Below, in pieces: positions 2,155-21,680 of a stretch of DNA of 35,850 nt. Every line of letters begins with the position of its first letter. The stretch's first letter is position 1. The notes below the pieces were generated by a model, which was not told the DNA's origin, did no database searches, and was given only the letters and a program-made list of their open reading frames with translations. This DNA comes from Promethearchaeota archaeon Loki_b31. GTDB lineage: Archaea > Asgardarchaeota > Lokiarchaeia > Sigyniarchaeales > SOKP01. The stretch covers positions 1 through 35,850 of the forward strand of contig NJBI01000036.1 in assembly GCA_005222975.1 (NCBI GenBank). Reading direction: 5' to 3'. The position numbers were made by a program, and so were the translations under genes.

Positions 2155-2191
2155 GAAAAATTGATAAGTAATGATAACTTAGTAACTCAAG
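2155..2191 (-). repeat. Right terminal inverted repeat of the IS1634 element
   Basis: GAAAAATTGATAAGTAATGATAACTTAGTAACTCAAG, followed by the AATTT duplication. Confidence 0.93.
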
Positions 2192-2279
2192 AATTTAAAA
2201 ATGTATAAAATTTAAAATTTTATTAATTTGTACTTAAATAATTGTCTAATCATGGTAAATAGTCAATTTAGGTTGAAAG

Positions 2280-2401
2280 CAGTATTATGACAAAGTAAAG
2301 AATATCGTTATGCTTGGATTTGGGGATATGGGTAAAGGAATTGCCCAAGTTTGCTAAATGGCGGCGTATTAAAAACTGATAAATTCGTAGGAATGGTTTG
2401 A
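2280..2401 (+). pseudogene. Remnant of a 3-hydroxyacyl-CoA dehydrogenase
   Basis: Translates QYYDKVKNIVMLGFGDMGKGIAQVC*MA, matching the 3HCDH_N Rossmann motif GxGxMGxGIAQV; in-frame TAA at 2355-2357; the rest of the gene is absent. Confidence 0.75.
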
Positions 2402-2596
2402 GATTACATTAAAATTTTCTTTTTCAATTAAATTTAGGTTAAAATAAATTAAAAAATAGATAATGCTTATCTTCCTTTAAACTTTGGATATTTTTTGAGA
2501 TTGTAATATTTATTTCTTCTTTAAAAATTAAATTTACTTCTGAATAATCGAGAATATTAGATAAAAAAAAAATAAAAAAGTTATATTTTAATTAGT

Positions 2597-4909
2597 TTAT
2601 TTTTTAGTATTTCTATAGTTTTTCCTTTTGCGTCTAATTATCAGTATGGTTGCTACCCCTATCACTGCTACTCCGCTAATAACCAAAATTAAAATAATCA
2701 GCTCGACTGGAATTGCTTCTGGAGCAGTAGGACTATATTTCACTAAATCAAAATGCAATATGTAATTCCAATCCCAACCAGTGTCCCAATCTTTATCCAC
2801 TGCGCGTCCTATTAAATCGTTTCCTAAATAGAGCATTGGATATTGTTCATTTTGAGCCCAATCTGCCAATTCACTATAGTACTGTTCCCTTCCAGTGGAG
2901 TTTTGGAACCAAAGTTTGGCAATCAAACCATCACAAGTAGCATTGTAATTAAAACCCATATTGGCACCCCCTTTATAGGGAAATGCGTAAGGATATGAAT
3001 TGTAATCTGCTATGTATCTAGTATAAGGTATATATGGAAAGGTAGCACCCGCCGGAGTTCGCTCAATAATGCCCGTGCTTTGATAATACGCTTGAATGTA
3101 TCCAAGATCATTAATCCGGTCGTGAAAAGGTTTAATTGCAAATCCATCGTTGGATAATAAAGGCAGTTGACCTGCTAATATTGCAGGATAGGTACCGATT
3201 AAATCTTCGGTAGCATCTATGGAACACCCAATATCAGCAAGAGCGGATATTAACATAGAATAAGATTCAAGATGGGCGCCATCGTAATGATGCTCAAATG
3301 TGTAGAGGGGATTACTCCCTGCTACAGTGTTCCAATCGTCTGTTGTACTAGTCAAACCACGAGAAGCACAAATTGAACCCCAGACTGGATGATCTAGAAG
3401 GGTTTGTCGCGCTATAGTGAGATCTCTAGAAGGTAAAGTTACAGATGGGTCATAATATTCGTGAGTAGTTGCCACTAATCCCCCAGAACGCACTAACCGG
3501 CCTCCAAATAATGCCAAATATGTATCATAGTCATAAGCGTAAGAAAGCGCTTTTCTAAAGGCGCGATCAACTCCATGTACAGGCTTTAGAGTTCCATTTG
3601 CTTCCTTAAAATTAGTGGAGGTTAAAATTCCCCATTGAGTTAAATTGAAACCTACATCATACCAATACCGCAAATAGGTCTCATCAGCACAATTTAAAAC
3701 GATAACTTCCCCGTAATTTTCCTGACCCATATCTACATATTCTATGTTAGGAGCGGTAGCTATATCACTATAACCAAGCGGTTCCCAGGAATGATCATAG
3801 GCAAAGTCAATATCGCCTGTCACCAGCGCGGTGGTCCTTGCGTTATATCCTGATTCGTCATGACTAAAAGTGACTACTGCCACACTTGAAACTTTATGCC
3901 ACCCTTTAGCCTGTTGAGCTGAAGAGTTCCACCAATTATCAAATCTTGTCATTGTACCTGTATCTATAGAAAAATTATCAAACATATAGGGCCCCGTACC
4001 GATTAAATGTCCAGGGAAAGGAGATGTTGCGTTATTTTGTGGAAAGCTTGGGTGATCTCCATATCCAAAGATAGGAACATCAAAATAGTCTTCATAAGAT
4101 GCCATGGAGATCATTCTCATAAACGCATTTGATAAATACTGTGGGCCAGTACTCCAATCATTAAAGAATACTCTAACCGTTCCTCCTGATTGCTTGTTAT
4201 CCAGTATGGTTATGTTTGTAAACCGAGGAAAACGATTATAACCAAATGGTATATCATATGCAAAACTAGTTCCGAATCCAGGATATTCACTAAGATATCC
4301 AATTATTCCGTAACCAGGAATGAAAGGGCCTAGGGGTCCCCGTAATTTTGTTACGTTCCAAGACGCAGTCGCGTAATCATCCCAATCACTTAAACTCATC
4401 CAATAAAGCCCTCTGTTATTAGTCACAGCTGAATCAGGTGAAGCACCAAGACAAAAATTTATACTTCCCAAGGTGTACATGTGCCGATCAATATTCCACT
4501 TTGCCACTGTCGCGTTCCAATCTGAGCCATCGTGAAACTTAACATTATCTCTGAGAGTAATATCCATATAATCAACTCCATCATAGTTCATAAAACCTGC
4601 AGCGTTCATTTCATCTGGTCGTTCATGCATTGTCCAATTGGCTGCAAGTAATGGTACTGAATTATCGTACTCTCCAGTTTCCGCAGAATAAGGCAACTCA
4701 AACAATCCTTCAAGAGCGTTATACCTGAAATAATCGCCAGTACTTGCTCCAAAACAAGGACCATCCCAATTACCTATGGGGGCCGGTCCGACAGCTCCTA
4801 CAGTAAAATTAGGTATCGTTCCTTGAGCTTTAACATCGAAAGGTAGAATTGGAAATACCATAGAAATAATAAATAGAAAAAAAATTAATTTTTTTGACCA
4901 TTTTCTCAT
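2597..4909 (-). CDS. Family-5 ABC substrate-binding protein (DppA/OppA-like), membrane-anchored, 770 aa
   Basis: Signal peptide (..VKAQ); LRDNVKFHDGSDWNATVAKWNIDR; IGTGPY; FRKALSYAYD; C-terminal TM helix with basic tail; many N-x-S/T sequons. Confidence 0.9.
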   Translation of the reverse strand: MRKWSKKLIFFLFIISMVFPILPFDVKAQGTIPNFTVGAVGPAPIGNWDGPCFGASTGDYFRYNALEGLFELPYSAETGEYDNSVPLLAANWTMHERPDEMNAAGFMNYDGVDYMDITLRDNVKFHDGSDWNATVAKWNIDRHMYTLGSINFCLGASPDSAVTNNRGLYWMSLSDWDDYATASWNVTKLRGPLGPFIPGYGIIGYLSEYPGFGTSFAYDIPFGYNRFPRFTNITILDNKQSGGTVRVFFNDWSTGPQYLSNAFMRMISMASYEDYFDVPIFGYGDHPSFPQNNATSPFPGHLIGTGPYMFDNFSIDTGTMTRFDNWWNSSAQQAKGWHKVSSVAVVTFSHDESGYNARTTALVTGDIDFAYDHSWEPLGYSDIATAPNIEYVDMGQENYGEVIVLNCADETYLRYWYDVGFNLTQWGILTSTNFKEANGTLKPVHGVDRAFRKALSYAYDYDTYLALFGGRLVRSGGLVATTHEYYDPSVTLPSRDLTIARQTLLDHPVWGSICASRGLTSTTDDWNTVAGSNPLYTFEHHYDGAHLESYSMLISALADIGCSIDATEDLIGTYPAILAGQLPLLSNDGFAIKPFHDRINDLGYIQAYYQSTGIIERTPAGATFPYIPYTRYIADYNSYPYAFPYKGGANMGFNYNATCDGLIAKLWFQNSTGREQYYSELADWAQNEQYPMLYLGNDLIGRAVDKDWDTGWDWNYILHFDLVKYSPTAPEAIPVELIILILVISGVAVIGVATILIIRRKRKNYRNTKK

Positions 4910-4975
4910 TTTTACTATACTCCTTATTGTTTTTGTTAATTTAGTATTCGAATTTTTTGTTAAATTTTTGTTATA

Positions 4976-5000
4976 AGTTAATTTACGATGTAAATTTATT
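4976..5000. promoter_or_regulatory. Palindromic operator-like site in the divergent SBP/permease promoter region
   Basis: AGTTAATTTAC-GAT-GTAAATTTATT; 2 mismatches from the perfect copy at 11309-11333; overlaps a minus-strand TTTAAATA TATA candidate at 4997-5004. Confidence 0.65.
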
Positions 5001-5054
5001 TAAAGCTTGTGGAATTATATATTTTTTTGAATCAAATTTAAAAAATCTCGATTT

Positions 5055-5597
5055 ATGATAATGTTGCAAGACGAGGAACCTCGATTTAGAACTAACAATA
5101 ACGAGAAGAAAGGTAATATAAAAATCGATTTTGGCCGTCAAGGTGGGTTTTTTTTAGCTTATACAATTGTATTACTAGGATATTATGGTATTGTTGCTAA
5201 TATCGTTATGGTTAATCAGTGGATCTCTCTTACGACACAAACTTGGATAAGCTTTACTGAAATGGAAAGAACGGTGTTATTTTGGACATTTGAAGCGTAT
5301 GTAGATACATTCTTTTTGCCTTTAATATTATTATTTATTACTTGTTTTTTATTAACATATAAGGAGGATATTCCGCACTACGGAATAAAAGCGTCAATCT
5401 GGCTTGTGCCTTTAATAATTGTTGAAGCTTTTATTTTTTATGCAATCATGTTTGGGTTTAGTCTGGAGCCATTTATTTTACAATTTGGAAATTGGAAGGG
5501 TTATTTACATATTATTATACTATTTGCGACTACGCTCTCTGGTGCTATCAGCGGTATGAAAGTTAAACAATTTATTAAATCAAAAAGAAATATATAG
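5055..5597 (+). CDS. Uncharacterised integral membrane protein (about 4 TM helices), first gene of the ABC operon
   Basis: 180-aa ORF with four hydrophobic segments, 45 bp upstream of the permease and co-oriented with it. Confidence 0.75.
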   Translation: MIMLQDEEPRFRTNNNEKKGNIKIDFGRQGGFFLAYTIVLLGYYGIVANIVMVNQWISLTTQTWISFTEMERTVLFWTFEAYVDTFFLPLILLFITCFLLTYKEDIPHYGIKASIWLVPLIIVEAFIFYAIMFGFSLEPFILQFGNWKGYLHIIILFATTLSGAISGMKVKQFIKSKRNI

Positions 5598-5642
5598 TAA
5601 AATACTTAAAGCAAATTCTTATTTGAAAAAAGGGAGTAAAAG

Positions 5643-6713
5643 ATGGCTAAACAACCAAAAAATATGATAAAATATATCATCAAACGGATATTAATGATGA
5701 TTCCGATGTTGTTTCTTGTTCTAGCAATCTCTTGGTTCTTATCGTATTTAATGGTTCAACAAAATTTAGTTAACCCGGTTGCCGGTAGATTGGGTGGTAC
5801 ACTCGATCCTGATGTTATTGAAGCAGAATTAAGGAGAATTGGATATTATGACCCTTGGTTCGTGCAGCTTGCTACATATTTTAAGAATTTCTTTACCGGA
5901 AATTGGGGTTCTTCTTATTTAATTGCACAGGATAAACCAGTAATAGATTTAATTTCGGAAATATTTCCAAGAACTATAGAATTAATGATAATCCCAATAA
6001 TACTAAGTCCTATTATCGCAGTTAAACTTGGAGTAGCTTCTGCTACCCATAAGGATAATATAAAAGATGTAGGTGTTAGAGCTGTTGCAATAATAGGAGC
6101 AGGATTCCCTATCTTTTGGATTGCTGACTTACTCCAACGCTTTTTTGGGTATTATATAAGTAATTTTACATATGGAAGCTTTGATATACCCGCTTTTTTC
6201 GGAAATACACCTGGATTAAAAAATCCTCCGCCATCTATAACAGGATTTCGGATCATTGATAGCATAATAGCTAACAACCAAGTTTATTTGTGGGATACAA
6301 TTGCACATTTGATACTTCCAGCTATATGTATAACTTTCGTCTCATTGGCGAGTATGACAAGACAAACGCGATCAAGCATGTTGGACGTTTTAAATCAAGA
6401 TTATATTAGAACTGCACGAGCTAAAGGTGTGGTAGAACAAGACGTAATAAATAAACACGCTATTCGTAATGCATTACTGCCTGTCAGTAATCTTATCGTA
6501 GCGGGTACGGCAACAGCGTTATTAGGCTCTTTTTTTATCGAAGTAGTTTTTAATTATAAAGGATATGGTTATTACATGGTCATTTCTATAATAACAGGAG
6601 ATTACCTAGTTACCCTTGGGCTCTTAGTATTTGCGACTATAATAATCCTTTCGGGGACTTTAATCGCAGATGTTTTATATACGATAATTGACCCGCGAAT
6701 AACATATACATAA
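5643..6713 (+). CDS. dppB: Peptide/nickel ABC permease, DppB-like
   Basis: YIIKRIL N-terminus; HLILPA; TRSSMLDVLNQDYIRTARAKG; ADVLYTIIDPRI. Confidence 0.93.
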   Translation: MAKQPKNMIKYIIKRILMMIPMLFLVLAISWFLSYLMVQQNLVNPVAGRLGGTLDPDVIEAELRRIGYYDPWFVQLATYFKNFFTGNWGSSYLIAQDKPVIDLISEIFPRTIELMIIPIILSPIIAVKLGVASATHKDNIKDVGVRAVAIIGAGFPIFWIADLLQRFFGYYISNFTYGSFDIPAFFGNTPGLKNPPPSITGFRIIDSIIANNQVYLWDTIAHLILPAICITFVSLASMTRQTRSSMLDVLNQDYIRTARAKGVVEQDVINKHAIRNALLPVSNLIVAGTATALLGSFFIEVVFNYKGYGYYMVISIITGDYLVTLGLLVFATIIILSGTLIADVLYTIIDPRITYT

Positions 6714-6749
6714 CAAATAAAAATTGAGAGGTCGTTTAAGATATCAGAA

Positions 6750-7742
6750 TTGGCATTAAAAGGAGAACAACTAAAGGAGCATGTAGCATCGAAATCGTTA
6801 AGAAAAAAGAAATTTTTTCGTTTTTTAAAGTTTTATTTAATTCCTGGTTGGCGGGATCCCGAATTTTCTGCGCAAGAATATCAGATTGAAAAAATAAAAT
6901 CTAAAAGGAGATTGTTTCGACACCTTATTAAACATCTTACATTAATAGGGCTAATAATGATTTTATTTATTTTTGCGCTAGCCGTATTTGCACCTTGGAT
7001 TACTCCCTATCCATTACAAGACTTAGTAATACCACATGTTCCGCTTAATCCAGATCCTTATGCTCTCCCATCACCGGAACATCCGTTAGGGACAACATAT
7101 CATGGATATGATGTTTTAGCTAGAATTATTTGGGGCGCTAGAACTACAGTTTTTTCGTCGTTAATCCCCGTAGCAATATCCCTTGGATTAGGTCTTGCTA
7201 TAGGTATCTTTTCTGCTTATATCGGTGGAGTTATTGACTATCTCATAATGCGCTTTGTAGACTTATTCTATGCTTTTCCAACACTGATACTCATTATCAT
7301 TATTACTCCTATGGTTGGTAGCGATTTATTTACCACACTTATTGTTTACGGACTTCTTTTTATACCGTATAATATTAGGTTCATGCGATCACTTGTTTTT
7401 CAAATAAAGCAACTTGAATACGTTCAAGCAGCAAAAGTAGGTGGTGCGTCACGGTTTATTGTAATGTTTAAGCACATATTGCCAAATGCGGTATCTCCTA
7501 TGCTAATATCTTTTTTTGGAGGTGCCGCAGTAGCAATAATAGGTTTAGCAGGTCTTGCATTTATAGGATTTTCAGACAATACTGTAGCAAGCTGGGGTAT
7601 TGATATTTTATGGGCTCGAGGTAAATATAGTAATCTCGGTGCTGCTGTTTGGCCAGGATTGTTTATTGGAATTGCTGCCATAGGATATATACTTCTTGGA
7701 GATGGATTTCGAGATGCATTAGATCCACGATTAAAATTATAA
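6750..7742 (+). CDS. dppC: Peptide/nickel ABC permease, DppC-like
   Basis: PSPEHPLGT..GYDVLARIIWGAR; EYVQAAKVGGAS; KHILPN; GDGFRDALDPR. Confidence 0.93.
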   Translation: MALKGEQLKEHVASKSLRKKKFFRFLKFYLIPGWRDPEFSAQEYQIEKIKSKRRLFRHLIKHLTLIGLIMILFIFALAVFAPWITPYPLQDLVIPHVPLNPDPYALPSPEHPLGTTYHGYDVLARIIWGARTTVFSSLIPVAISLGLGLAIGIFSAYIGGVIDYLIMRFVDLFYAFPTLILIIIITPMVGSDLFTTLIVYGLLFIPYNIRFMRSLVFQIKQLEYVQAAKVGGASRFIVMFKHILPNAVSPMLISFFGGAAVAIIGLAGLAFIGFSDNTVASWGIDILWARGKYSNLGAAVWPGLFIGIAAIGYILLGDGFRDALDPRLKL

Positions 7743-7782
7743 AAAAGAGGGATAAAAAGTTTTAAATACAATATATCAAACT

Positions 7783-9702
7783 GTGTTTGGATTAAACTAC
7801 GGAAAAGCATTAATTGAGTCAATTATTATTGTCTTTGTTTTATATTTAATTACAAATTTTATTAATAATCAAATTCCTGAAGACAAACAACTCTCAAAGA
7901 AGGTATTTAAAAGAAGGTCAGCATTAATTTGTTTTGTTATAGTATTTCCTATTATTATTGACATTAAATTTACCTTTGAAACCTTATGGCTTTTCAATTC
8001 CATATTTTTGGCTTTCAATAATAATGCGGTCTCATTCGCAATTATAACTACTGTCTTTTATTTTTTCTCTAAAAAACTAATACTAAAAGATAAAAGAATT
8101 AGAGCTTCAAGGGAGGTGCATTTTAAGAAACCGTTTATCAAAATATTTAGAATATTTATTGGAATAACTTGGATAATTGCCATAATATTTATTTCAATTC
8201 CTCTCCTAGGACTTGAAAGACTTCAAGGGCAACAACCGGTATTTGTTGATATATTTTACCTTGGATTTATATGGGCGGGTTTTACTGTTGTTTTTGATAT
8301 GCTCGTGACAATGCTAATTAATAGAATTCGTTCGATTGAGAAAAGAATTCCTGAAAGACCTTTAAAATATTCCATGTTTTCTGGTGGACTGATCTCATTT
8401 GGAATTTGGTCAATACAATTAGTAATCTTTGAATTATATATGAATAGATTATTTGGAGTAATAATATATAAACAGGACATTCGCATGTTAATTATCATTG
8501 TTAGTGCTCTTTATGCTTTCATATTTTATATATCGTTGAAAAAGAAATTTATGCCAAGCACTCAGGAAAAAAGCAATTTAAAACTCCAAAGAGCGTTAGA
8601 ATTGGTCGAAGAGCAATCCTTAGAAAGCTCTAAATTAAATGGCAACCACATTATCCTTCATGTGAAAGGCCTCACTACATATTTTTATACGGAAGAGGGT
8701 GTAGTTCGGGCAGTAGAAGACGTTTCTTTTAAAATATATGAAGGTGAAGTTCTTGGTCTTGTAGGCGAAACCGGTTGTGGAAAATCTGTTACCGCTTTAT
8801 CCATTGTTCAACTAATTCGCCCTCCAGGAAAAAGAGAAAAAGGAAATATTGTTTTCAGTGGAGAAGATCTGTCTCTAAAATCTGAATTAGAAATGTTAAA
8901 ATATCGTGGAAAAAATATTACTATGATTTTTCAAGATCCTCTTAATTCGCTTAATCCTGTTTTTAAAATAGGTAAACAAATATCGGAAGTATTTTTACTA
9001 CATATGGAAAACGAACTGCTTGTCGAAACTTCGAAATTTCCTAATAAGAGTTTATATAGCATTGCTCAGGAATGGAGTATAGCCCTTTTAAAAGACTTAA
9101 ATATACCATTTCCTGAAGTAATTTTTGATAGATATCCTCATGAATTAAGTGGTGGTATGCGGCAAAGAGTTCAGATTGCGATGGCATTGGCATGTCGACC
9201 TAAATTACTGATTGCTGATGAACCGACTACTGCGTTAGATGTTACAATACAAAATCAAATTCTTAAACTGATGAAAGAACTTCGTAAGAAATACAACACT
9301 AGTATATTATATATTACTCACGATTTAGGTCTTATCTCTAAAATGTGTAATCGTGTTGCTGTAATGTACAGCGGATCAATTGTTGAATATGGAAATATAA
9401 AGAGATTATTAACTAATCCTTATCATCCATATACCCAAGGACTTATAGCTTCTGTTCCTGTTGTTGGAAAAAAGCAAGTTAAGCTTGAAGTTATAACGGG
9501 AATGGTTCCAAATTTAATTTATCCGCCATCAGGATGTAGATTTCATCCCAGATGTAAATATTGTTTCGATCCCTGTGAATCAATAGTTCCAAAACAAAAT
9601 GAGGTTGATAAGGATTATTATGTGGCATGCCATCTCTATAATCCAGAATATAAACATTTAGCAGAAATTACTATAAAGAAAGTAGAAGGAGCAAATATAT
9701 AA
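7783..9702 (+). CDS. dppD: DppD-like ABC ATPase fused to an N-terminal membrane domain (about 7 TM helices)
   Basis: Walker A GETGCGKS, LSGGMRQR, ADEPTTALD and HPY/Cys C-terminus, starting near residue 291; residues about 1-252 are multi-spanning hydrophobic. Confidence 0.9.
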   Translation: MFGLNYGKALIESIIIVFVLYLITNFINNQIPEDKQLSKKVFKRRSALICFVIVFPIIIDIKFTFETLWLFNSIFLAFNNNAVSFAIITTVFYFFSKKLILKDKRIRASREVHFKKPFIKIFRIFIGITWIIAIIFISIPLLGLERLQGQQPVFVDIFYLGFIWAGFTVVFDMLVTMLINRIRSIEKRIPERPLKYSMFSGGLISFGIWSIQLVIFELYMNRLFGVIIYKQDIRMLIIIVSALYAFIFYISLKKKFMPSTQEKSNLKLQRALELVEEQSLESSKLNGNHIILHVKGLTTYFYTEEGVVRAVEDVSFKIYEGEVLGLVGETGCGKSVTALSIVQLIRPPGKREKGNIVFSGEDLSLKSELEMLKYRGKNITMIFQDPLNSLNPVFKIGKQISEVFLLHMENELLVETSKFPNKSLYSIAQEWSIALLKDLNIPFPEVIFDRYPHELSGGMRQRVQIAMALACRPKLLIADEPTTALDVTIQNQILKLMKELRKKYNTSILYITHDLGLISKMCNRVAVMYSGSIVEYGNIKRLLTNPYHPYTQGLIASVPVVGKKQVKLEVITGMVPNLIYPPSGCRFHPRCKYCFDPCESIVPKQNEVDKDYYVACHLYNPEYKHLAEITIKKVEGANI

Positions 9703-9784
9703 ATAAATAAAAATGAGATTAGGTCGTGATCTTGACTTTTTTAATAAAAATTATCGAATATAAACATGTAGTAGGGGAAAAATT

Positions 9785-11098
9785 ATGATTTTTCAATTGG
9801 ATGATCCTTATATCATTTTAGTAGTAGCATTAGTCTTAACCTTTTTATTATATTTTGGTTTAGCTTTCATTATTTCAATTTTTATTATTAATTGGGATCC
9901 TCGATCCCAATTAGTTAGATTAAGATTCCCCCTATACATAATATCATCATTTACTAGTATTCTTTTTATCTTTATTCCACTACCCGATATTCTCTTAGGA
10001 AATTTTTGGATATATTTAATTATATACAGTTTAGTAGCTGCGATTGTTAGTTTTGCTGTTAAATATATTACATATAAAGTAGTTAGGATTGAAAAATTTA
10101 GTCAAATTAGTAATCTTGAAAGAACTATGAATCTTCTTGAGGTTAGAAATCTTAAGGTACATTATCCACTTTTAGGAGGAATTTTAAAAAGAAAAATAGG
10201 AGCAGTTAAAGCAGTTGATGGAGTTTCATTTGATGTAAAGTTTGGTGAAACAGTTGGGTTAGTGGGAGAAAGTGGGTGTGGAAAAACAACTATTGCAAAA
10301 GCAATACTAGGTTTAGTCGCAAAAACAGAAGGAGAAGTATTATTCCAAGATACGGCAATTCCTCGCAAATATTCATCTCCTTTAAGACAAAAGATTCAAA
10401 TGATTTTCCAAGACCCAGACGCCTCTTTGAATCCCCGTAAAAAAGTAGTTGACATTATAGCTGATCCTCTCAAAAATTTACTTGGTATAACTAATGAATT
10501 AGAAATTAGAAAAAGGGTTTTAAAATTGTTAAACCAAGTGTCGTTAAAACGAGAACATATGGATCGTTATCCTCACGAATTTTCAGGTGGACAAAAACAA
10601 AGAATTGTTATAGCTAGAGCATTAGCTTGCAATCCCGAGTTGATAATTTTAGATGAACCTACTTCAGCTCTTGATGTATCAGTACAAGCACAAATTCTTA
10701 ACCTTCTAAAAGATTTACAAGGAGAATATGGCTATGGCTTTTTGTTTATTACCCACAATTTAGCTGTTGTTTCCCATGTTGCTGATCGCATAGCTGTCAT
10801 GTATCTTGGTAAATTTGTAGAGGTTGGAAGTAATGATCAAATTTTTTCAAATCCAACTCATCCCTATACTCAAGCTCTCCTCGCCTCGCGCTCTGAAATC
10901 GATCCTTACAACCAAGAGATCAGCTTTGTTATCAAAGGTGAAGTCCCAAGTCCTATAGCACCACCACCTGGTTGTAGTTATAATCCACGATGTGTATCTG
11001 ACGCTCGTACAAAAGATTGTGAATTAAATCTTCCTCAAAAGATTAAAATCGAAGAAGACCACTTTATTTGGTGTAATAATCCACCAACATCTATGTAG
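9785..11098 (+). CDS. dppF: DppF-like ABC ATPase fused to an N-terminal membrane domain (about 3 TM helices)
   Basis: GESGCGKT, FSGGQKQR, LDEPTSALD, HPYT; the ATPase starts at M115 (ATG 10127), preceded by three hydrophobic helices. Confidence 0.9.
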   Translation: MIFQLDDPYIILVVALVLTFLLYFGLAFIISIFIINWDPRSQLVRLRFPLYIISSFTSILFIFIPLPDILLGNFWIYLIIYSLVAAIVSFAVKYITYKVVRIEKFSQISNLERTMNLLEVRNLKVHYPLLGGILKRKIGAVKAVDGVSFDVKFGETVGLVGESGCGKTTIAKAILGLVAKTEGEVLFQDTAIPRKYSSPLRQKIQMIFQDPDASLNPRKKVVDIIADPLKNLLGITNELEIRKRVLKLLNQVSLKREHMDRYPHEFSGGQKQRIVIARALACNPELIILDEPTSALDVSVQAQILNLLKDLQGEYGYGFLFITHNLAVVSHVADRIAVMYLGKFVEVGSNDQIFSNPTHPYTQALLASRSEIDPYNQEISFVIKGEVPSPIAPPPGCSYNPRCVSDARTKDCELNLPQKIKIEEDHFIWCNNPPTSM

Positions 11099-11273
11099 TT
11101 AAAAAAAAATCTTTTAAAGAGAATTTATTGAACGAGTAAATAAAAATATATTTCTTGTTAATTTAGTATAAAACTTAAAGTAATTTTGAAGTCAGTATTG
11201 TATTAAGTCTTAAGCTAAGGGTGTTAATGTTGAATATATTTGTAACTCATTTTGGTGAAAATTAATTGTCTGT

Positions 11274-11333
11274 AGAAAAATTTAAATATTTAATAATAGA
11301 TAGTTTTAAATAAATTTACTCCGTAAATTTATT
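11274..11333 (+). promoter_or_regulatory. BRE/TATA promoter plus perfect palindromic operator upstream of the GRE
   Basis: AGAAAAA then TTTAAATA (11281-11288); AATAAATTTAC-TCC-GTAAATTTATT at 11309-11333 is a perfect 11-3-11 inverted repeat over the expected transcription start. Confidence 0.75.
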
Positions 11334-11357
11334 AATAACCAATACAATTGTTGAATT

Positions 11358-13805
11358 ATGGTAGTCCAAGATTTGAAAATGACTCCTCTTCAAGGGATAC
11401 CTTCAGAGAGAGTTCGAATGATTAGAGATATAATGCTCTCAATGCCTAGAGAACTTGATCTTGAGCGAGCTCGGTGTTATACAAGAATATATAAACAAAT
11501 GGAAGATGCTCCTCCATGTATGAAAAATGTGAAAGCATTAGAGGAATTTTTACGATGTCTTCCAATAAGAATTGATGAGCATGAGCTTCTCGTAGGCGTA
11601 AAATCTAGTAAAGTAAGAGCTGATCCAATTGAAATTGAACGTGGAATGCGTGTTAAACTTTTAGGGTTTGTTGTTGACGAGTCAATAAATCAAAAATTAA
11701 AAGAAATGATTATTTCAAAAATTTCTTTTATTAACCGGTATGTTCCCTTAACAGAAGAAGAACTTGATGAGTTGAGGAACGAAATTCTGCCCTACTGGAA
11801 AGGAAGAACAGTCGCAGATCGAAAGGTAGAAGCTTATAAAGAGGCAGGTTTATATGAGGAACCGAAGGGAGCTATAGGTGCAATGCCACTCGTTAGTTTT
11901 GGGAGCGGCACTGATATGTTTGCAGGTGCTATGGGTCAAGGACATGTCATACCAGGTTATAGACGAGTACTTAAAATGGGATTTAGAGGAATCGAAAAGA
12001 TGGCGGAAGAAGGTCTTGCAAATCTTAAGGAAACAGATGAAAAATATGACCAACGCAAGGATTTTTATGAATCAGTCGTAGTAGCCGCAAACGCCGTCTG
12101 TGATTATTCCAATCGATATGCTGATCTCGCAATGGAAATGGCGGAAACTGCATCAGAAACAAGAAAAGCTGAACTTCTTGAAATTGCCGAACATGCAAGA
12201 CGAGTACCAGCACTTCCACCTAGAACATTTATGGAAGCACTTCAGTCAGTATGGATGACGAACGTCGTTATGGAAATGAGTTATGGTGAAGGAAACATAT
12301 TTTCTCAAGGACGGGTGGACCAATATCTTTACCCATATTACACAACCGATTTAGCAGAAGGTCGAATTACTTATGAGGAAGCTATAGAAGCAATTGAGGA
12401 ATATTTAGTTAAACTTTCTTCTGTTGTTATAGCTGGACAGAACAATATAACTATTGGAGGACTAGATAAGGATGGAAATGATGCCACTAATGACGTATCT
12501 TATATGTTTCTCGAAGCTATTGCAAATGTAAAAAGTTTATTGAATACCTTATCGATCCGAATCTCCCCCAAGTCACCCCGTGATTTTTTGAAAAGAACTC
12601 TTGAAGCTTATAAATATACGGCCGGAATGGGAATTCATAATGATGAGGTTTTAGTACCACAACTTCATAATACAGGATATTCATTAGAAGATGCCCGAGA
12701 TTATTCAATCGTCGGTTGTGTAGAACCACATGGTACAGGGAATGACTTCTCTTATACTGCAGGTAATGCTGTTCAGATTTCAATCATTCTTAATATGGCA
12801 TTAAATGAGGGCCGTACTATTTTATCAGGAAATAAAACCCTTGGGGCAAAAACACCCCCAGCAAAAGATTTTAAATCTTTTGAAGATGTAAAGAAGGCTT
12901 TTGTAGACCAACTTAAATTTTCAATAGACCTCTGTGTGAAAAAGGCTGAGATAAAGGATAAAACGTTTGCTGAGTATTTACCTTCCCCGTTGCTTTCTTC
13001 TTCAATAGAAGGATGTCTCGAAAGCGGAATGGACGCAACTCGAAATGGAGCTAAATACAACAATAACCCCATGGGCTCGCAAGGGCTTGCAACAGTTACT
13101 AATTCCTTAGCAGCAATTCGCTGGGCAGTATTTGAAGAGAAATTAGTATCCATGGAAGAATTAGTTAACCATATGAATAATAATTTCAAGGGGGCTGAAG
13201 AACTTCGAGAAAAATTACGAAATAAAGCTCCTAAATATGGTAATGGTGATGAAAGCACTGACGAAATTGCATTATGGGTGGCAAATACTTTATGTGATAT
13301 TACAAGAAAATATAAAGCGAGAGGCGGTGATGGTATATATCATAATTGCCTTGTATCTTCTGGAACTCAGATTATAGAAGGTAAAATGTTAGGGGCAACT
13401 GCAGATGGAAGATTAAAAGGCGAACCCGTGGCGAACGGTATTTCTCCTGCAAATGGGACAGAAACGAATGGTCTTACCATGGCACTCCGATCAGTAGCAT
13501 ATGCAACAGCTGAACCTCATCTAACTAATGGCGCATCAATGAATGTTAGACTCAATCCTAGTATAATGCAAACAGACGAGGGACTCGATCAATTAACATC
13601 TATAGTAGAGGCGTATTTAGATTTAGGAGGTCGAGAGCTTCAAATAAATCCAATAAGCTCAGAAACCCTTAGGGACGCACAAGCTCATCCAGAAAATTAT
13701 CCTGACTTATCCGTTAAAGTCACAGGCTATTCTGCTCGATTCATAGATTTAACAAAAGAGCTTCAGGATGATATTATCGCAAGAACAGTTTTCAATGAAT
13801 TATAA
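11358..13805 (+). CDS. Glycyl radical enzyme (PFL2/eliminase-like), substrate unknown, 815 aa
   Basis: Single-Cys loop VGCVEP (C454); Gly loop VKVTGYSARF (G790); GRVDQYLYPYY; KAPKYGN; GATADGRLKGEP; Q.DIIART C-terminus. Confidence 0.93.
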   Translation: MVVQDLKMTPLQGIPSERVRMIRDIMLSMPRELDLERARCYTRIYKQMEDAPPCMKNVKALEEFLRCLPIRIDEHELLVGVKSSKVRADPIEIERGMRVKLLGFVVDESINQKLKEMIISKISFINRYVPLTEEELDELRNEILPYWKGRTVADRKVEAYKEAGLYEEPKGAIGAMPLVSFGSGTDMFAGAMGQGHVIPGYRRVLKMGFRGIEKMAEEGLANLKETDEKYDQRKDFYESVVVAANAVCDYSNRYADLAMEMAETASETRKAELLEIAEHARRVPALPPRTFMEALQSVWMTNVVMEMSYGEGNIFSQGRVDQYLYPYYTTDLAEGRITYEEAIEAIEEYLVKLSSVVIAGQNNITIGGLDKDGNDATNDVSYMFLEAIANVKSLLNTLSIRISPKSPRDFLKRTLEAYKYTAGMGIHNDEVLVPQLHNTGYSLEDARDYSIVGCVEPHGTGNDFSYTAGNAVQISIILNMALNEGRTILSGNKTLGAKTPPAKDFKSFEDVKKAFVDQLKFSIDLCVKKAEIKDKTFAEYLPSPLLSSSIEGCLESGMDATRNGAKYNNNPMGSQGLATVTNSLAAIRWAVFEEKLVSMEELVNHMNNNFKGAEELREKLRNKAPKYGNGDESTDEIALWVANTLCDITRKYKARGGDGIYHNCLVSSGTQIIEGKMLGATADGRLKGEPVANGISPANGTETNGLTMALRSVAYATAEPHLTNGASMNVRLNPSIMQTDEGLDQLTSIVEAYLDLGGRELQINPISSETLRDAQAHPENYPDLSVKVTGYSARFIDLTKELQDDIIARTVFNEL

Positions 13806-13948
13806 ATTTTAATATATCATTCTTTTTATTTTTTAAATTTGATTTTCCCTTCTTAGCTTCAATTTTTAAAACTAGTAAAGATATATTTGGTTACGATATT
13901 TTTGTATAAAAATTAAGAAAAATAGTATCTTGTTATCGTTATCTGAAC

Positions 13949-14902
13949 CTAACGAGTTAAACCCGACCACTTAACATTCTTAACCCCAGTAGCTTTAGCA
14001 ATTTCAATAAAATTTTCCATCTCTTCTTTTGTCATTAATGGCTCATCTTTTAAAGACCATGACTTACCTAATTGTGTATATTTAATATCACAGAGTTTAT
14101 TAAAACTTAATAAATCCCATTTATCAGGTATATTATTTAATTCATTTACAATGAATTCTCCAATGCCTTGAACATTCTCTTCCGTGGCAGTATAGTTTGG
14201 AATTAAGGGTGTCCTTATCCATATAATTTTCTTATTTTCCTTGATATATTTAGAAATCCATTTGGCGTTTTCTAAGATTGTTTTATTTGAAACGCCTGTG
14301 TATTCTTTATGTTTTTCAGGATCAATCTCTTTGATATCTAACAACACTATATCAAGGTAGGGTAATAAATCTTGATACACTTTTTTACTTGAAATTCCGC
14401 ACGTATCTAAAGCCGTAGAAATACCATTTTCCTTGCATAATTTCAAAATTTTCAAGAGAAAATCTGGTTGTAAAGTAGGTTCACCACCAGAAACGGTTAT
14501 ACCTCCTTTTGCTTTATTAAAGAATATTTTTTCTTTTTCTATTTCGTGAAAAAGTTCTTCTACATCCCACCATTTTCCATGCATGTTTAATGCCGTACTA
14601 GGACACGCTTCTACGCAATCTCCACAACTAGTACATCTTTCTCTATTAATGTGTAATCCATCATCTTCAAAAAGTAAAACATCCTCTTGGCAAGCATCTA
14701 TACAACTATTACATCCAATGCATTTACGTTCTATCCAATAAAGTTGAGGCTTTTTTGGAATTGATTCTGGATTGTGACACCAAACGCAATTTAAAAGGCA
14801 GCTATTAAAAAAAATTGTTGTACGCACTCCAGGACCATCGTCAGTAGCCATTCTCTCCAATTTAAAGATTAATCCTTTAGATGTTGACTCTATATTAAAC
14901 AC
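13949..14902 (-). CDS. Glycyl-radical activating enzyme (radical SAM with ferredoxin insert), copy 1
   Basis: DGPGVRT; CLLNCVWCHNPE (CX3CX2C); two CX2CX2CX3C motifs; GGITVSGGEP; ALDTCG. Confidence 0.93.
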   Translation of the reverse strand: MFNIESTSKGLIFKLERMATDDGPGVRTTIFFNSCLLNCVWCHNPESIPKKPQLYWIERKCIGCNSCIDACQEDVLLFEDDGLHINRERCTSCGDCVEACPSTALNMHGKWWDVEELFHEIEKEKIFFNKAKGGITVSGGEPTLQPDFLLKILKLCKENGISTALDTCGISSKKVYQDLLPYLDIVLLDIKEIDPEKHKEYTGVSNKTILENAKWISKYIKENKKIIWIRTPLIPNYTATEENVQGIGEFIVNELNNIPDKWDLLSFNKLCDIKYTQLGKSWSLKDEPLMTKEEMENFIEIAKATGVKNVKWSGLTR

Positions 14903-14999
14903 TTTTGTTTGTTTTAAATATATAAATAGTAAAATTAAGGAATTTTTAAAAAGATTTTTAATAGCTGTTGGCTATTTATTGATATTTTTTTATTCCGAT

Positions 15000-16883
15000 T
15001 TACGAAATTATCTCTAAATCTTTCAATTTTTCTTTCGACGGTCTTCCAGTTTCCCAATCCCATCCCCGAATATTATAATATTTCCTCAAATTATCTTCTA
15101 AATCGAGTTTTACATTTTTTAATCTTCCTGATGATAGTATTTTCATATTGTGATTGGGTAATTTATCGTCTTTCCTTGAAATTCCTAGTTTACAACTAAT
15201 TAAACGTTTCAAATTGTTTATTCGTTCGCCAACCTTTATTAGTGATTTTCGATCGTAATTAAAACCTGTTGCAGCATTTATATAGCCAATAATATGTTCG
15301 AATTTAGGGGTTGCAAAATTGCAATTCACTGCCGAATCATCAATAGCCCTCAAGTCTTGAAGATTTACGACTCCTTTTTCTCGTCCCGTTATATCAAATC
15401 TGTTTTTACTTCGTTTAATATGGAGAATTCTATTGTTAATTGTTCCCGATTCCGCTGAATACCAGTCACATTTGTTATGGTTTGCCCCAACACATCCTGT
15501 CATATAACTTAATGCTTGACCGGCAAATGCTCTAGGGTCATGCATAGGGATTTCTAAGCCTTTTACATGTGCCGCTAATTCAGGATCCACTTCAAACTTC
15601 AAAGCCATAACTCTCACGCCTTCTGCAAGAACATCCCCGATACCTTCCCTCTGGCCTATTTTTTCAATAAGTTTGCAAACAAGTTCTCCATTTCCCCACT
15701 TAATATCTTCCACAGGAATATCATTCAAAAATTCCTTTATTTTGTTGACACCTAAATTGTTTTCAACTAAATAAATTAGAAAAGCAATTGAAACTCCACA
15801 AGAAATAGTATCGATACCAAATTTATTACAAAGATGGTTTGCAAGAACTACTGGTTTTGAATCAAAAACACCACATAAACTACCTAATGCTGCAACAGAT
15901 TCATATTCTGGTCCATCGCTTTCAATTTGAACCTCCCCTGTGCTAATAACTGTTGATTTACCACACTTTATCATACAACCTGCACACCCATAACTGAACA
16001 TGGGATATTCTTCTCTCAGAGTTTTCCCTGTTAAATTCTCGGCAATAAATTCCGTTTCTGTAAAGTAATATCCTGGAGTATCACCATTAACCATCCCTAG
16101 ATCGAGATACATATTAGTACCATATAAATTAAAAAGTAAGGTTCCGACTTCTCCCATCGGGTTTGCTTCCCTTTCAAGTTGTGCTTCCTTTCTTAATGTT
16201 TTCCCTAGCTCGTTATCTGCTAGATTAATCTTTTCTATTCCATGTACTACTAATGCTTTTAAATTCTTTGAACCCATAAGAGCTCCTAACCCACACCTAC
16301 CAACTACTCTCCCTTCATCATTCAATATAGCGCTATATTTAACAAGATTTTCTCCCCCTGGGCCAATACAAGCTATCCGAATGTTTGGAACATTTATTTC
16401 ATCTTTAATTAGTTTTTGGGTCTCGTAGCAATCTTTACCGTGATATTTTGAAGCATCCTTAAACTCTATTTTTCCATCGCGGATAAATACATAGCTTAAT
16501 TTACTTGACTTTCCTAAGAAAATAACAGCATCAAATCCACTATTTCTCAATGCGATACAAAACAAACCACCCGAAGATCCCTCACCCCAAATACCAGTTA
16601 AAGGTGATATCCCGCTCACGGTATAGCGACCTGAATTTGGGCGAATAGTACCTGTTATAGGACCAGTAGCAAAAATTAAAGGATTAATTTCTGCGTATGG
16701 ATTTTCTCTCAATATATTGTAGTCTTCTTCTGAGAGGAGATCGTACGTTAATTTAGCGCTTAATCCTGTACCCCCTAAATATTTTTGAGCAATTTTAGGA
16801 TCTAAATCTTTTATTTCAAAACTTTCTCTGCCTAAATCTACAAAGAGGATTTTACCATTATAACCAAATAATTTATCGTTCAT
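15000..16883 (-). CDS. Tungsten-type aldehyde:ferredoxin oxidoreductase family protein
   Basis: GYNGKIL.VDL; SPLTG; GRCGLGALMGSKNLK; CAGCMIKC; GPEYES; GIDTIS; VKGLEIPMHDPR; YYNIRGWD. Confidence 0.93.
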   Translation of the reverse strand: MNDKLFGYNGKILFVDLGRESFEIKDLDPKIAQKYLGGTGLSAKLTYDLLSEEDYNILRENPYAEINPLIFATGPITGTIRPNSGRYTVSGISPLTGIWGEGSSGGLFCIALRNSGFDAVIFLGKSSKLSYVFIRDGKIEFKDASKYHGKDCYETQKLIKDEINVPNIRIACIGPGGENLVKYSAILNDEGRVVGRCGLGALMGSKNLKALVVHGIEKINLADNELGKTLRKEAQLEREANPMGEVGTLLFNLYGTNMYLDLGMVNGDTPGYYFTETEFIAENLTGKTLREEYPMFSYGCAGCMIKCGKSTVISTGEVQIESDGPEYESVAALGSLCGVFDSKPVVLANHLCNKFGIDTISCGVSIAFLIYLVENNLGVNKIKEFLNDIPVEDIKWGNGELVCKLIEKIGQREGIGDVLAEGVRVMALKFEVDPELAAHVKGLEIPMHDPRAFAGQALSYMTGCVGANHNKCDWYSAESGTINNRILHIKRSKNRFDITGREKGVVNLQDLRAIDDSAVNCNFATPKFEHIIGYINAATGFNYDRKSLIKVGERINNLKRLISCKLGISRKDDKLPNHNMKILSSGRLKNVKLDLEDNLRKYYNIRGWDWETGRPSKEKLKDLEIIS

Positions 16884-16906
16884 TTTTCTAAATCACTCCA
16901 AATAAT

Positions 16907-18202
16907 TTAAAAATCAATGGTTTTACCATCCCAAGCATATTCAAATATTCTTTTTATAACTTCGCTATCGATATAACGAGTAACCATAAAAGCTACAGGA
17001 TCTGTTTCAGCGTAATTTACCAAGAGATCGAGATTTTTATAGTAGTCTTCTTCAGTAATGACTGGATTCTTTATTTCTTTTACACATACTGGACCATCTA
17101 TTGAATGTATGAACTCTTTAATACTATGAAGAAATTCAGTAAATAACTCATCATTATCTTTATTTTTAGTATCAATTGCAAAAATTGGACATAAATCTTT
17201 CCATCTTTCTGAAATTTTCATTTGGAAAGCAATCGTATACGGTAGAAACATCCCGACACAAAGTCCATGATGAACATTGAGTACTTTACCTAAACTATGA
17301 CCTAAGGCATGATCTATTCCAACACGGGAGTGAATAAATCCAAGTCCAGCCATACTCGCTGCTATTTGCATATGTGCTCTAGCTTCTATATCTTTGGCTC
17401 CATATTTAACTGCACGAGGTAAATATTTTATTATTTCTTTAATGGCGTATATGTTCATTGCATCCGCAAATGGAGTTCCTATATTTGATACATAAGATCC
17501 TGCTGCGTGAGCCAATGCATCAAGTCCTGTAGCCATGGTTAAAAATGGCGGCATATCTTTTACAAAATCTGTAATTAAAACTGCATAATCAGGAATCAAC
17601 TCTGGATGAGAGACGGTAAATTTTTTCGGAGGATCACGAGATATATCAGTTAGCATTGAAGCGAGGGTAACTTCAGATCCAGTTCCTGATGTTGTTGGAA
17701 TAGCAACAAAATATTTAATTTTTTTCCTCAAACCAAGAGGCTCTAAAGCTGACACCATGAATAGATTTGTTTCAGGTTTCTCGTATTTAATCATTAAAGC
17801 TTTTGTAGTGTCAAGTACACTCCCTCCACCAATTGCTACAAATACTCTAGGTTTAAAATCCTCGCATATTTTTACTGCTTCATCAATAGTATCAATTGGT
17901 ACCTCTTGCTTCACTCCAGACCATACTCTTGAATCTATATTTATTTTACCAAGTATATTACTTATCGGGCTAGCAAACTTTTCAGTAAAATCATCAGTTA
18001 TTATTAAAACTCTTCTTTCTCCTTCTTCAAGATTACCATCTAAGTAATTCTTTATCCTGTTTAATGCTGTCATTCCAAATATAACCTGTGGTGATCGAAA
18101 AGCCGTTAATAATCCGCCAGGTGCTCTTCCTTTCAATAAATTCATGAGAGCTCTTATTTGCTCACTTATTTGATCAGGGTTTTGTTCAGTTTTATTTTCC
18201 AA
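16907..18202 (-). CDS. Iron-containing alcohol dehydrogenase
   Basis: GGGSVLDTTK; IPTTSGTGSEVT; GLDALAH; HALGH..HHG metal ligands; TTG start with GGTGA RBS. Confidence 0.92.
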   Translation of the reverse strand: MENKTEQNPDQISEQIRALMNLLKGRAPGGLLTAFRSPQVIFGMTALNRIKNYLDGNLEEGERRVLIITDDFTEKFASPISNILGKINIDSRVWSGVKQEVPIDTIDEAVKICEDFKPRVFVAIGGGSVLDTTKALMIKYEKPETNLFMVSALEPLGLRKKIKYFVAIPTTSGTGSEVTLASMLTDISRDPPKKFTVSHPELIPDYAVLITDFVKDMPPFLTMATGLDALAHAAGSYVSNIGTPFADAMNIYAIKEIIKYLPRAVKYGAKDIEARAHMQIAASMAGLGFIHSRVGIDHALGHSLGKVLNVHHGLCVGMFLPYTIAFQMKISERWKDLCPIFAIDTKNKDNDELFTEFLHSIKEFIHSIDGPVCVKEIKNPVITEEDYYKNLDLLVNYAETDPVAFMVTRYIDSEVIKRIFEYAWDGKTIDF

Positions 18203-18366
18203 ATAAAATCACCATTTAATTTATAGTATTATTTTTTATAAATATATAATAATTTAACTTTTTTAAAAAATTTTAATAGCTATAGTCTATTTATTTTAAT
18301 TTGTGCTAATACCATAAAAACGGAATGTAATTATTGTAATGATAAAAAGAATGTAATCTTTTTAAA

Positions 18367-18398
18367 TTATATAAATGCATTTACAACGCAAATATTAG
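18367..18398 (+). promoter_or_regulatory. TetR promoter TATA with degenerate operator
   Basis: TTATATAA (18367-18374) immediately followed by AATGCATTTAC-AAC-GCAAAT, a degenerate version of the 11309-11333 palindrome. Confidence 0.5.
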
Positions 18399-18427
18399 GA
18401 ATTTAATTAATTAAAGTTGTTGGATTT

Positions 18428-19171
18428 GTGAAAACAATGGTGGAGCAAAAGCAAGTTAAAAATATAACAAAAAAAACAAGAAGTCGATCACCCGAAAAAA
18501 AAGCTCAGCAATTTGAAAAAATTCTGGAGGTAGGAAAGCAGTTATTTCAAGAACATGGAAGAGATGGTTTCTCTCTCTCTCGATTAGCAAAACAGTTAGA
18601 TATGAATAAAAATAATTTATATAATTATATCGAAAGTAAAAGAGAATTATGGATTGCAATAAGAAAGAAATTTTATGAACAATATCGAAATGAGAACCGT
18701 AAAATCATAAAAGAATCTAGTGAGTCCAATATCGATACATTAATCAGACTTTTTACACACTTTTTTGAGTTTGCAGAAAATGATTATGCGGCTTTCCGAA
18801 TGATGCACATTATACTCTCTCCGCCATCGGATAAAATTGGTCCTTTTGAAAAAGAATATAAACAATTTAGCTTTTTAGATGGAACTACTCGTTTAATTCA
18901 AAAAGCAATTGATAACGGAGAGATTAAAGAAAAAAACGCTGCGTTACTCTCATTCTTTATGTTTAGCCTATTACTTGGAGCCACTATGATAGAAAAAGCT
19001 ATGCGAGATATTAAAGAGGTAAATAATAAAGACGGAAAGGAAGTAGAGGAGCGGACACAATTTGGAAGTCAAAAATTTACAAGCAAGGAATTCCGGAAAT
19101 ATACATTACAAAAGATTCAAAAGGGATTTACTGCTCCCAATATGGCAGTAAATGAATTTGAATATAAATAA
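18428..19171 (+). CDS. TetR/AcrR-family transcriptional regulator
   Basis: KILEVGKQLFQEHGRDGFSLSRLAKQLDMNKNNLYNYIESKREL helix-turn-helix; LIQKAIDNGEI C-terminal domain motif. Confidence 0.9.
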   Translation: MKTMVEQKQVKNITKKTRSRSPEKKAQQFEKILEVGKQLFQEHGRDGFSLSRLAKQLDMNKNNLYNYIESKRELWIAIRKKFYEQYRNENRKIIKESSESNIDTLIRLFTHFFEFAENDYAAFRMMHIILSPPSDKIGPFEKEYKQFSFLDGTTRLIQKAIDNGEIKEKNAALLSFFMFSLLLGATMIEKAMRDIKEVNNKDGKEVEERTQFGSQKFTSKEFRKYTLQKIQKGFTAPNMAVNEFEYK

Positions 19172-21617: not shown

Positions 21618-21680
21618 AAGTATGGAAAGATTCTTCTAATAATAAGAATTTTTGATAAAAAAATTAAAAAAATTTGTTTT

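Follow-up and report, generated by a model that had tools for sequence, protein, structure and literature searches.

The window analysed here is an entire contig of 35.85 kb (NJBI01000036.1) from the 3.5-Mb, 92%-complete genome of the Asgard archaeon Promethearchaeota archaeon Loki_b31. At positions 2597-19171 it carries an island of genes around a glycyl radical enzyme (GRE) that would, in our reading, form one catabolic unit under its own TetR-family regulator. Genes were called from the open reading frame (ORF) listing and from Pfam and NCBIfam family scans of the window, and all those named in a first-pass annotation of this DNA are present and contiguous over that range. The minus strand encodes an SBP_bac_5 substrate-binding protein of the Opp/Dpp/Nik class (2597-4909; 770 aa; Pfam SBP_bac_5, 6e-23). 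Its gene diverges from a plus-strand run holding the importer and the GRE: a small membrane protein of 180 aa with 3-4 predicted transmembrane (TM) segments that opens the importer operon (5055-5597); two Opp/Dpp-type permeases (5643-6713 and 6750-7742; BPD_transp_1 with BPD_transp_1_N or OppC_N); two ABC ATPases with an oligo_HPY tail (7783-9702 and 9785-11098; ABC_tran plus oligo_HPY); and, separated from the ATPase genes by a gap of 259 bp, the GRE itself (11358-13805; 815 aa; PFL-like and Gly_radical domains), which belongs to an Asgard clade without family assignment. A minus-strand run converges on the GRE gene and diverges from the TetR gene. It is led by an iron-type (group III) alcohol dehydrogenase (Fe-ADH, also ADH below; 16907-18202; Fe-ADH plus ADH_Fe_C), continues with an aldehyde:ferredoxin oxidoreductase (AOR) of the tungstopterin AOR family (15000-16883; AFOR_N plus AFOR_C), and ends with a GRE-activating radical SAM enzyme (the activase) that has a ferredoxin-like insert (13949-14902; TIGR02494, Radical_SAM and Fer4 domains). 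The TetR-family regulator, which we propose as the repressor of the island, is encoded on the plus strand at 18428-19171 (TetR_N helix-turn-helix (HTH), PF00440, 34 bits versus 24), and is followed on the same strand by a 345-aa cytoplasmic protein without known family or fold (19264-20301). The named homologs reported for the window are all Asgard, and the window also holds an archaeal RNase P RNA at 31620-31943 on the plus strand (Rfam RF00373, 125 bits). Rfam gave no riboswitch or other RNA family inside the island; a scan for sigma-70 promoters and terminators returned the same counts as shuffled sequences, the model being bacterial and thus uninformative for an archaeon.

Two of the promoter regions of the island carry an exact copy of the palindrome AATTTAC-N3-GTAAATT. 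Operator O1 (4980-4996, spacer GAT) lies in the divergent binding-protein/importer promoter, and operator O2 (11313-11329, spacer TCC) ends about 30 nt 5' of the GRE ATG. These are the only exact copies in the genome; shuffles of the window give an expectation of 0.01 copies, and a reversed control pattern has 0 copies genome-wide. TATA-like A/T runs flank O2 on both sides, at a fixed distance from the GRE ATG, and a protein bound at O2 would occlude the promoter under any reasonable archaeal promoter placement. A third exact copy of the inner 15-mer is found on another contig (C75), and we take it as a chance occurrence because it has no A/T flanks and sits inside a G+C-rich non-coding element (ca. 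65080-65220). That element has tRNA-like ends and is surrounded by A+T-rich intergenic DNA; ARAGORN and Rfam found nothing there.

The gene arrangement was followed into other Asgard archaea with an alignment of 30 members of the GRE clade, which served to retrieve 64 loci of other Asgard species (one genome per species). The window proteins were mapped onto these loci and all ORFs of the loci were clustered. The recurring unit reads: binding protein on the minus strand; the small membrane protein (in part of the loci), two permeases, two ATPases, and one to four GREs on the plus strand; activase on the minus strand; and TetR on the plus strand. The importer adjoins the GRE in ca. 20 loci from different Asgard species and in several GRE subclades (66-91% identity). 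TetR is present in 21 other loci, and no other regulator is conserved in the cluster; the activase stands next to the GRE in 39 loci, and the 180-aa membrane protein holds the same position in 10 other loci. The metagenome-assembled genomes (MAGs) concerned are labelled Promethearchaeota, Hod-, Hermod-, Odin-, Hel-, and Thorarchaeota. In many loci the genes after TetR encode UvrA, aIF5B, or the CCA-adding enzyme, housekeeping functions that mark the boundary of the conserved unit. The linkage of the genes survives rearrangements between loci, and in sister subclades two to four tandem GRE paralogs, without AOR and ADH, occupy the GRE position. Our literature searches gave no description of this island, and none combining a GRE with an AOR and an ABC transporter.

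The operator is conserved along with the genes. A search for the inner motif ATTTAC-N3-GTAAAT over 924 kb of related Asgard loci gave 22 exact copies, all of them at two promoter positions and none elsewhere; two order-swapped control patterns gave 1 and 0 matches. Twelve of the 22 copies lie 30-31 nt 5' of a GRE ATG (11 other loci), and the other ten lie in the divergent binding-protein/importer region, 52-73 nt from the binding-protein ATG (10 other loci). Across loci the conserved half-sites reach to AAATTTAC and GTAAATTT while the 3-nt spacer varies freely, which is the pattern expected of a dimeric DNA-binding protein. One subclade carries the symmetric variant AATCTAC-N3-GTAGATT; comparison of the TetR recognition helix with the ATCTAC variant gave no clean pattern of co-variation. 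The first-pass annotation had taken the island for a single co-regulated unit, and the recurrence of the importer-GRE-activase-TetR linkage in ca. 20 loci, with the palindrome at fixed promoter positions, supports this regulon reading well and bears out the synteny check that the annotation had itself proposed; the unit is older and broader than that annotation could see.

A third operator-like site, O3, was predicted as well. It is the degenerate sequence ATTTACAACGCAAAT (18379-18393) in the divergent ADH/TetR promoter, 34 nt 5' of the TetR start, with 1 mismatch in the inner 12 positions and 3 in 14. Genome-wide, the inner motif with one mismatch is no more frequent than the control (45 against 51 copies), and O3 is therefore not significant on its own; what supports it is its position, together with the clearer TetR-side sites of relatives. 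Sites with at most 2 mismatches occur on the TetR side in 7 of 21 loci, versus 2 of 237 other intergenic regions, and in other loci they read ATTTAT-N3-GTAAAT, often exactly 20 nt 5' of the TetR start. We regard O1 and O2 as firmly supported and O3 as plausible but weak in the lineage of the window. Of the palindrome that had been claimed for all three promoter regions, the copies at O1 and O2 are thus exact, and the TetR-side copy is degenerate in this lineage. The regulator itself has the TetR_N HTH domain and palindromes near its own gene, and is predicted to bind DNA. Elsewhere in the genome (contig C16, 48279-50700), paralogs of TetR and of the NMO1 enzyme of the window (each 55% identical) are encoded divergently, and the intergenic region between the two contains a copy of the palindrome with 2 mismatches.

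The enzyme at the centre of the island is a member of the GRE superfamily (PF02901, 2.6e-161; PF01228, 3.6e-23). Its glycine loop VKVTGYSA (G790) fits the fingerprint RVxG[FWY]x6-8[FL]x4Qx2[IV]x2R except for a lysine in place of the first arginine (K787), which is invariant across the clade. The single-cysteine loop GCVEP (C454 and E456, both invariant in the 30 clade members) aligns to the cysteine loops of CutC and glycerol dehydratase, and holds the C-x-E (CXE) motif that is common to all characterised GRE 1,2-eliminases and to GRE isomerases (PMC13450708). The GRE stays below every NCBIfam cut-off and below half of every curated equivalog cut-off: it scores 544 bits against 678 for TIGR01774 (the PFL2/glycerol dehydratase subfamily), 487 against 1100 for HypD (NF043068; the top score among curated equivalog models), 484 against 1000 for HpsG (NF048011) and 459 against 1000 for HpfG (NF048009), both DHPS dehydratases/sulfolyases, 467 against 1050 for CutC (TIGR04394), and 129 against 994 for pyruvate formate-lyase (TIGR01255), having one cysteine and not two adjacent ones. 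The first-pass annotation was right to list it as unassigned, since none of the curated family cut-offs is reached by this single-cysteine CXE enzyme. Five further GRE paralogs are encoded on other contigs of the genome, and a GRE of this genome other than the island enzyme exceeds the TIGR01774 cut-off, with 732 bits. Matches to solved eliminases and isomerases in the PDB range from 314 to 445 bits, the best being CutC (445), followed by glycerol dehydratase (412).

Compared residue by residue, the active site resembles more than one of these enzymes. His196, in the motif GQGH, aligns with the histidine of glycerol and propanediol dehydratases and stands at the position aligned to the choline-binding aspartate of CutC (which we take to be D216 in D. 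alaskensis CutC numbering). Thr467 aligns with a threonine of CutC. An aspartate, a serine, a histidine, and an asparagine of glycerol dehydratase, presumably its glycerol-binding residues Asp447, Ser282, His281, and Asn156, are matched in our GRE by Ala468, Ile314, Asn313, and a threonine. The tandem paralog groups diverge mainly at residues ca. 165-195, just before His196, and around 662-672, with the other active-site segments nearly identical between groups; to judge from their sequences, these differences would fit related but distinct substrates. We put at about even odds the broader proposition that the Asgard-wide clade performs an elimination on a substrate of no characterised GRE, with tandem paralogs tuned to related compounds.

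The activase is a GRE-activating enzyme by TIGR02494 (312 bits against a cut-off of 174). A second activase, 64% identical to it, has no GRE adjoining and belongs to a plus-strand run at 23231-28916 that encodes an NMO-like FMN enzyme, this activase, a 294-aa protein without family, a sulfatase, and a second NMO-like enzyme. No RNA run is listed as containing this DNA. In a marine-sediment RNA library (three runs tried), we found a 1032-nt contig ca. 89% identical to GRE positions 11547-12553, together with two short pieces. This hints that the GRE of a relative is represented in the RNA library, and says nothing on co-expression.

AOR and Fe-ADH occur together in the window and in four other loci, and a fifth locus reaches the contig edge right after AOR. 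All these loci fall in one subclade of the GRE tree, and show two gene orders: GRE, activase, AOR, ADH, TetR; and GRE, AOR, ADH, activase, TetR. In both orders AOR and ADH are internal to the minus-strand unit whose promoter is shared with tetR, which we read as selection for co-expression with the activase. The two genes are a later, lineage-specific addition, and not ancestral to the unit. The first proposal, which counted them in the regulon, needs correcting on this point: they occur in one GRE subclade, and most relatives have two to four tandem GRE paralogs and neither gene. AOR belongs to its family on its AFOR_N and AFOR_C domains (PF02730, 3.6e-65; PF01314, 2.6e-101); its best PDB match is the P. 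furiosus AOR (1aor, 8.7e-104), and as a family member it would carry a tungstopterin and a 4Fe-4S cluster. The nearest solved relatives of the Fe-ADH include Fe-ADHs, the ADH domains of AdhE, lactaldehyde reductase, and 1,3-propanediol dehydrogenase, so that by sequence it resembles short-chain aldehyde reductases.

Aldehyde-type enzymes also adjoin other members of the wider GRE group. Sister groups (Thor/Hermod group) neighbour Zn-type ADHs, a carboxylesterase, and alpha/beta hydrolases; other related groups neighbour two acyl-CoA synthetases, or a DHDPS-Fae fusion. Within the genome of the window, where AOR paralogs number about ten, contig C65 carries a second GRE-activase-AOR cluster (ca. 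21100-27100; GRE 29% identical; AOR with one internal TAA), and contig C40 a second ADH-AOR pair of unchanged gene order (131-3208; 45% and 53% identical). Taken together, the aldehyde-type neighbours and these second GRE/AOR and ADH/AOR sets make a carbonyl product a recurring theme, which may hold for the GRE of the island too. Two sets of neighbours deserve a record of their own. In four Thor/Hermod loci (L056, L057, L059, and L070), a protein of ca. 800 aa without Pfam family is encoded ca. 2-4 kb 5' of the GRE, divergent from it and adjoining the carboxylesterase, with Zn-ADH copies 3' of the activase; elsewhere the protein is paired with an HTH_10 regulator. In three loci (L040, L042, and L047) a fusion of a DHDPS-family aldolase with Fae (formaldehyde-activating enzyme) lies directly 5' of the 73-75% GRE group, whose neighbours there also include a 426-aa protein without family, a nitroreductase, and a peroxiredoxin.

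No microcompartment appears to be involved, as the first-pass annotation had already noted for the window: shell proteins (PF00936) have no match in the window or in the 92%-complete genome, in a search in which E. coli and Synechococcus as controls gave matches, and there is no Aldedh-family gene among the window ORFs. The lipid-like substrate that the same annotation had suggested from nearby beta-oxidation remnants is not borne out. A thiolase neighbour is found only in the closest relatives, and the gene after TetR is mostly one of the housekeeping genes listed above.

By its family-5 binding protein, two BPD_transp_1 permeases, and two oligo_HPY ATPases, the transporter is an Opp/Dpp (PepT) importer, with two atypical features: N-terminal TM extensions on both ATPases, and the extra small membrane protein, for which Pfam and NCBIfam gave no match. 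The extensions measure ca. 300 aa (7783-8700, ca. 6-7 helices) and ca. 140 aa (9785-10200, ca. 3 helices), and match no family. TM segments precede Walker A in every GRE-linked ATPase homolog examined; in most related loci both ATPases have ca. 6-7 helices before it. The binding protein has TM segments at residues 8-26 and 737-755, the latter followed by a basic tail, corresponding to a signal peptide and a C-terminal membrane anchor. Its homologs that bear a name are all Asgard. A PDB sequence search with the binding protein returned marginal matches and no close solved relative, and structural matches of its confident AF2 model (pLDDT 87.5) are limited to cluster-C binding proteins (11-16% identity). 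The 345-aa protein (19264-20301) accompanies the importer, its gene standing at one or the other end of the island depending on the species. It is single-copy in the genome and has more than 300 homolog clusters, all organism-named ones being Asgard; many of the homologs share contigs with importer or GRE homologs. Pfam, NCBIfam, and protein-atlas features gave no match for it. Its AF2 model, a confident one (pLDDT 83, pTM 0.85), found no Foldseek match at E <= 0.001, the best VIA Z being 4.4 (PDB).

From these data we consider the best explanation, with a probability of roughly 0.55, to be a substrate-inducible catabolic island under its own TetR-family repressor, in which the GRE performs an elimination to an aldehyde that AOR and ADH then handle. 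Without inducer, a TetR dimer would sit on the palindrome AAATTTAC-N3-GTAAATTT at the divergent binding-protein/importer promoter, beside the TATA-like sequence ca. 30 nt 5' of the GRE, and more weakly at the promoter of tetR and ADH-AOR-activase, and would thereby block promoter use. With inducer, the Opp-type ABC importer and its binding protein would take up a polar, hydroxylated organic solute, and the activase would install the glycyl radical on the GRE. The GRE would then use its Cys454/Glu456 pair and His196 for a radical 1,2-elimination, in which a C-O bond is most likely broken, and release an aldehyde, probably a short-chain one. In the lineage of the window, a plausible route is that this aldehyde is disproportionated without a microcompartment: AOR would oxidise it to the acid with reduction of ferredoxin, and Fe-ADH would reduce it to the alcohol.

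Several points weigh against this explanation. That TetR is the protein binding the palindromes is our deduction from sequence, and in the subclade of the window the TetR-side site is more degenerate yet positionally conserved. An aldehyde product is what we infer for this GRE, while the CXE motif also marks isomerases, whose products are ketones or imines (PMC13450708). The mosaic character of the active site means that no known chemistry is transferable with confidence. Most loci of the clade lack both AOR and ADH, so that the aldehyde link draws on one subclade and on looser neighbours. The ligands of the binding proteins matched by the AF2 model, at about equal strength, are glutathione, nickel, peptides, opines, chitin oligomers, and sialic acid, and thus the model does not narrow the ligand class. 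Finally, relatives at ca. 50% identity stand in heterogeneous gene contexts that have no common theme, among them an alkylsulfatase with an M28 peptidase; NMO, DHDPS, UxaE, and 6PGD; and a hydrolase with acyl-CoA dehydrogenases.

Among the alternatives, the one that survives best keeps the regulon as real and makes the GRE an isomerase or a dehydratase of cyclic substrates in the style of YbiW, PflD, HplG, or HypD. A ketone or a cyclic imine would then be formed in place of a free aldehyde, and AOR and ADH would act downstream or on other aldehydes. Retention of the CXE motif by GRE isomerases (PMC13450708), the leading position of HypD among the curated equivalog models, the absence of AOR and ADH from most clade loci, and the suitability of amino-acid-like or sugar-like cargo for Opp/Dpp-class importers all speak for it. 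We nevertheless think it improbable: every curated equivalog score is below half of its cut-off, PDB matches to isomerases and HypD-type enzymes reach 314-377 bits versus 412-445 for CutC and glycerol dehydratase, and AOR and ADH are kept in the activase operon in two gene orders. HypD, HpyG, and HpzG are likewise CXE enzymes whose amino-acid-like substrates would suit a Dpp-class importer; the island GRE matches their structures at 353-371 bits, more weakly than CutC or glycerol dehydratase, and the island is without proline-pathway genes.

Slightly less probable still is a scheme in which the imported compound is a larger conjugate (a peptide, glycoside, or ester, for example), to be hydrolysed by enzymes encoded elsewhere; the GRE would take the small alcohol so released, and TetR would sense that intermediate and not the compound taken up. 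The binding protein is indeed large and of the oligopeptide/oligosaccharide class, and carboxylesterases and alpha/beta hydrolases adjoin sister GRE groups and a bacterial relative. The conserved core of the island, however, contains no hydrolase, and the GRE groups with hydrolase neighbours lack the importer.

Published work raises the case of hydrocarbon activation. Zhang et al. (2021) assigned single-cysteine GREs of Asgard archaea to alkyl- and benzylsuccinate synthases (Ass/Bss) on 29-33% identity and the single cysteine (PMC8163825), and MAGs labelled Hermodarchaeota carry members of the present clade. The Hermodarchaeota enzymes are like ours in being single-cysteine Asgard GREs with ferredoxin-type activases, from mangrove and marine-sediment MAGs. 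This clade differs in its CXE loop, its importer for soluble cargo, its aldehyde enzymes, and its lack of small-subunit genes. We see very little chance that our GRE is such a synthase. Its loop is of the eliminase type; on neither side does the adjoining gap contain an ORF (25 aa or longer) fit to encode a small accessory subunit; MasD and TutD match at 243 and 230 bits in the PDB, far below CutC and glycerol dehydratase; the activase scores 180 bits against the BssD cut-off of 496; and a binding-protein-dependent ABC importer is an odd partner for hydrocarbons. Judged on these sequence features, an Ass/Bss assignment is unlikely for the clade, to which the published sequences may or may not belong. 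As for the genes being mere neighbours and the palindrome a product of chance or promoter composition, an A+T-rich genome in which one-mismatch inner motifs are as common as the control, and the third exact inner 15-mer in the non-coding element, might suggest it, but it is already contradicted by a 17-mer whose only two copies in 3.5 Mb both belong to the island, by 22 of 22 exact copies in 924 kb at two promoter positions, and by a linkage that persists through rearrangements.

The island has the character of an accessory, mobile unit. At least 6 of 201 sampled genomes of the phylum, its own included, contain close GRE orthologs, as do at least 2 of 16 genomes of the genus besides its own (in both counts, not all candidates per genome were scored); TetR orthologs of at least 67% identity occur in a few other genera of the family and are absent from six genomes of the same genus. 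Around the island lie a DDE transposase (348-2054, plus strand), just beyond the binding-protein end; a thiolase (20265-20777, minus strand) truncated to 170 aa, compared with ca. 426 aa in two close relatives; and, beyond the other side, a TnpB gene (21890-23095, minus strand). Together these suggest recent rearrangement around the island.

Of the systems known to us, the bacterial loci of GRE 1,2-eliminases (propanediol dehydratase, CutC, and IslA; usually in GRM microcompartments) are alike in combining a CXE GRE with its own activase, an alcohol dehydrogenase that takes the aldehyde formed, and substrate-specific regulation. The present island differs from them in a genome without shell proteins and a window without CoA-acylating aldehyde dehydrogenase, in a ferredoxin-linked oxidative branch through AOR, in its archaeal host, and in an Opp-type ABC importer. 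The B12-independent glycerol dehydratase of C. butyricum (PDB 1r8w/1r9d), the second-best PDB match, shares GCVEP and the G-x-G-H histidine; the island GRE differs from it at the presumed glycerol-binding positions, and its context is not that of a 1,3-propanediol regulon. For the regulation, a parallel is offered by FadR of Sulfolobus acidocaldarius, an archaeal TetR-family repressor encoded beside the catabolic genes that it controls, with palindromic operators at their promoters; ligand and regulon differ in the island, and DNA binding by the island TetR is predicted.

According to a 2026 review, every PFL-like GRE of known function is bacterial, and the archaeal clades are without validation (PMC13450708). 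If the broader proposition given above for the clade is true, no archaeal PFL-like GRE system before this one would have combined a dedicated importer and a defined operator with an aldehyde branch that is AOR-based and free of microcompartments. Three independent handles on the substrate of this widespread GRE clade are available: the dedicated binding protein, the dedicated repressor, whose operator is precisely defined, and the GRE. The data argue that this Asgard GRE clade, at least, should not be counted as alkane- or toluene-activating, and claims that Asgard archaea activate hydrocarbons would lose part of their basis if that broader proposition holds. Some Asgard archaea of anoxic sediments may gain reduced ferredoxin by a radical-enzyme pathway without a microcompartment.

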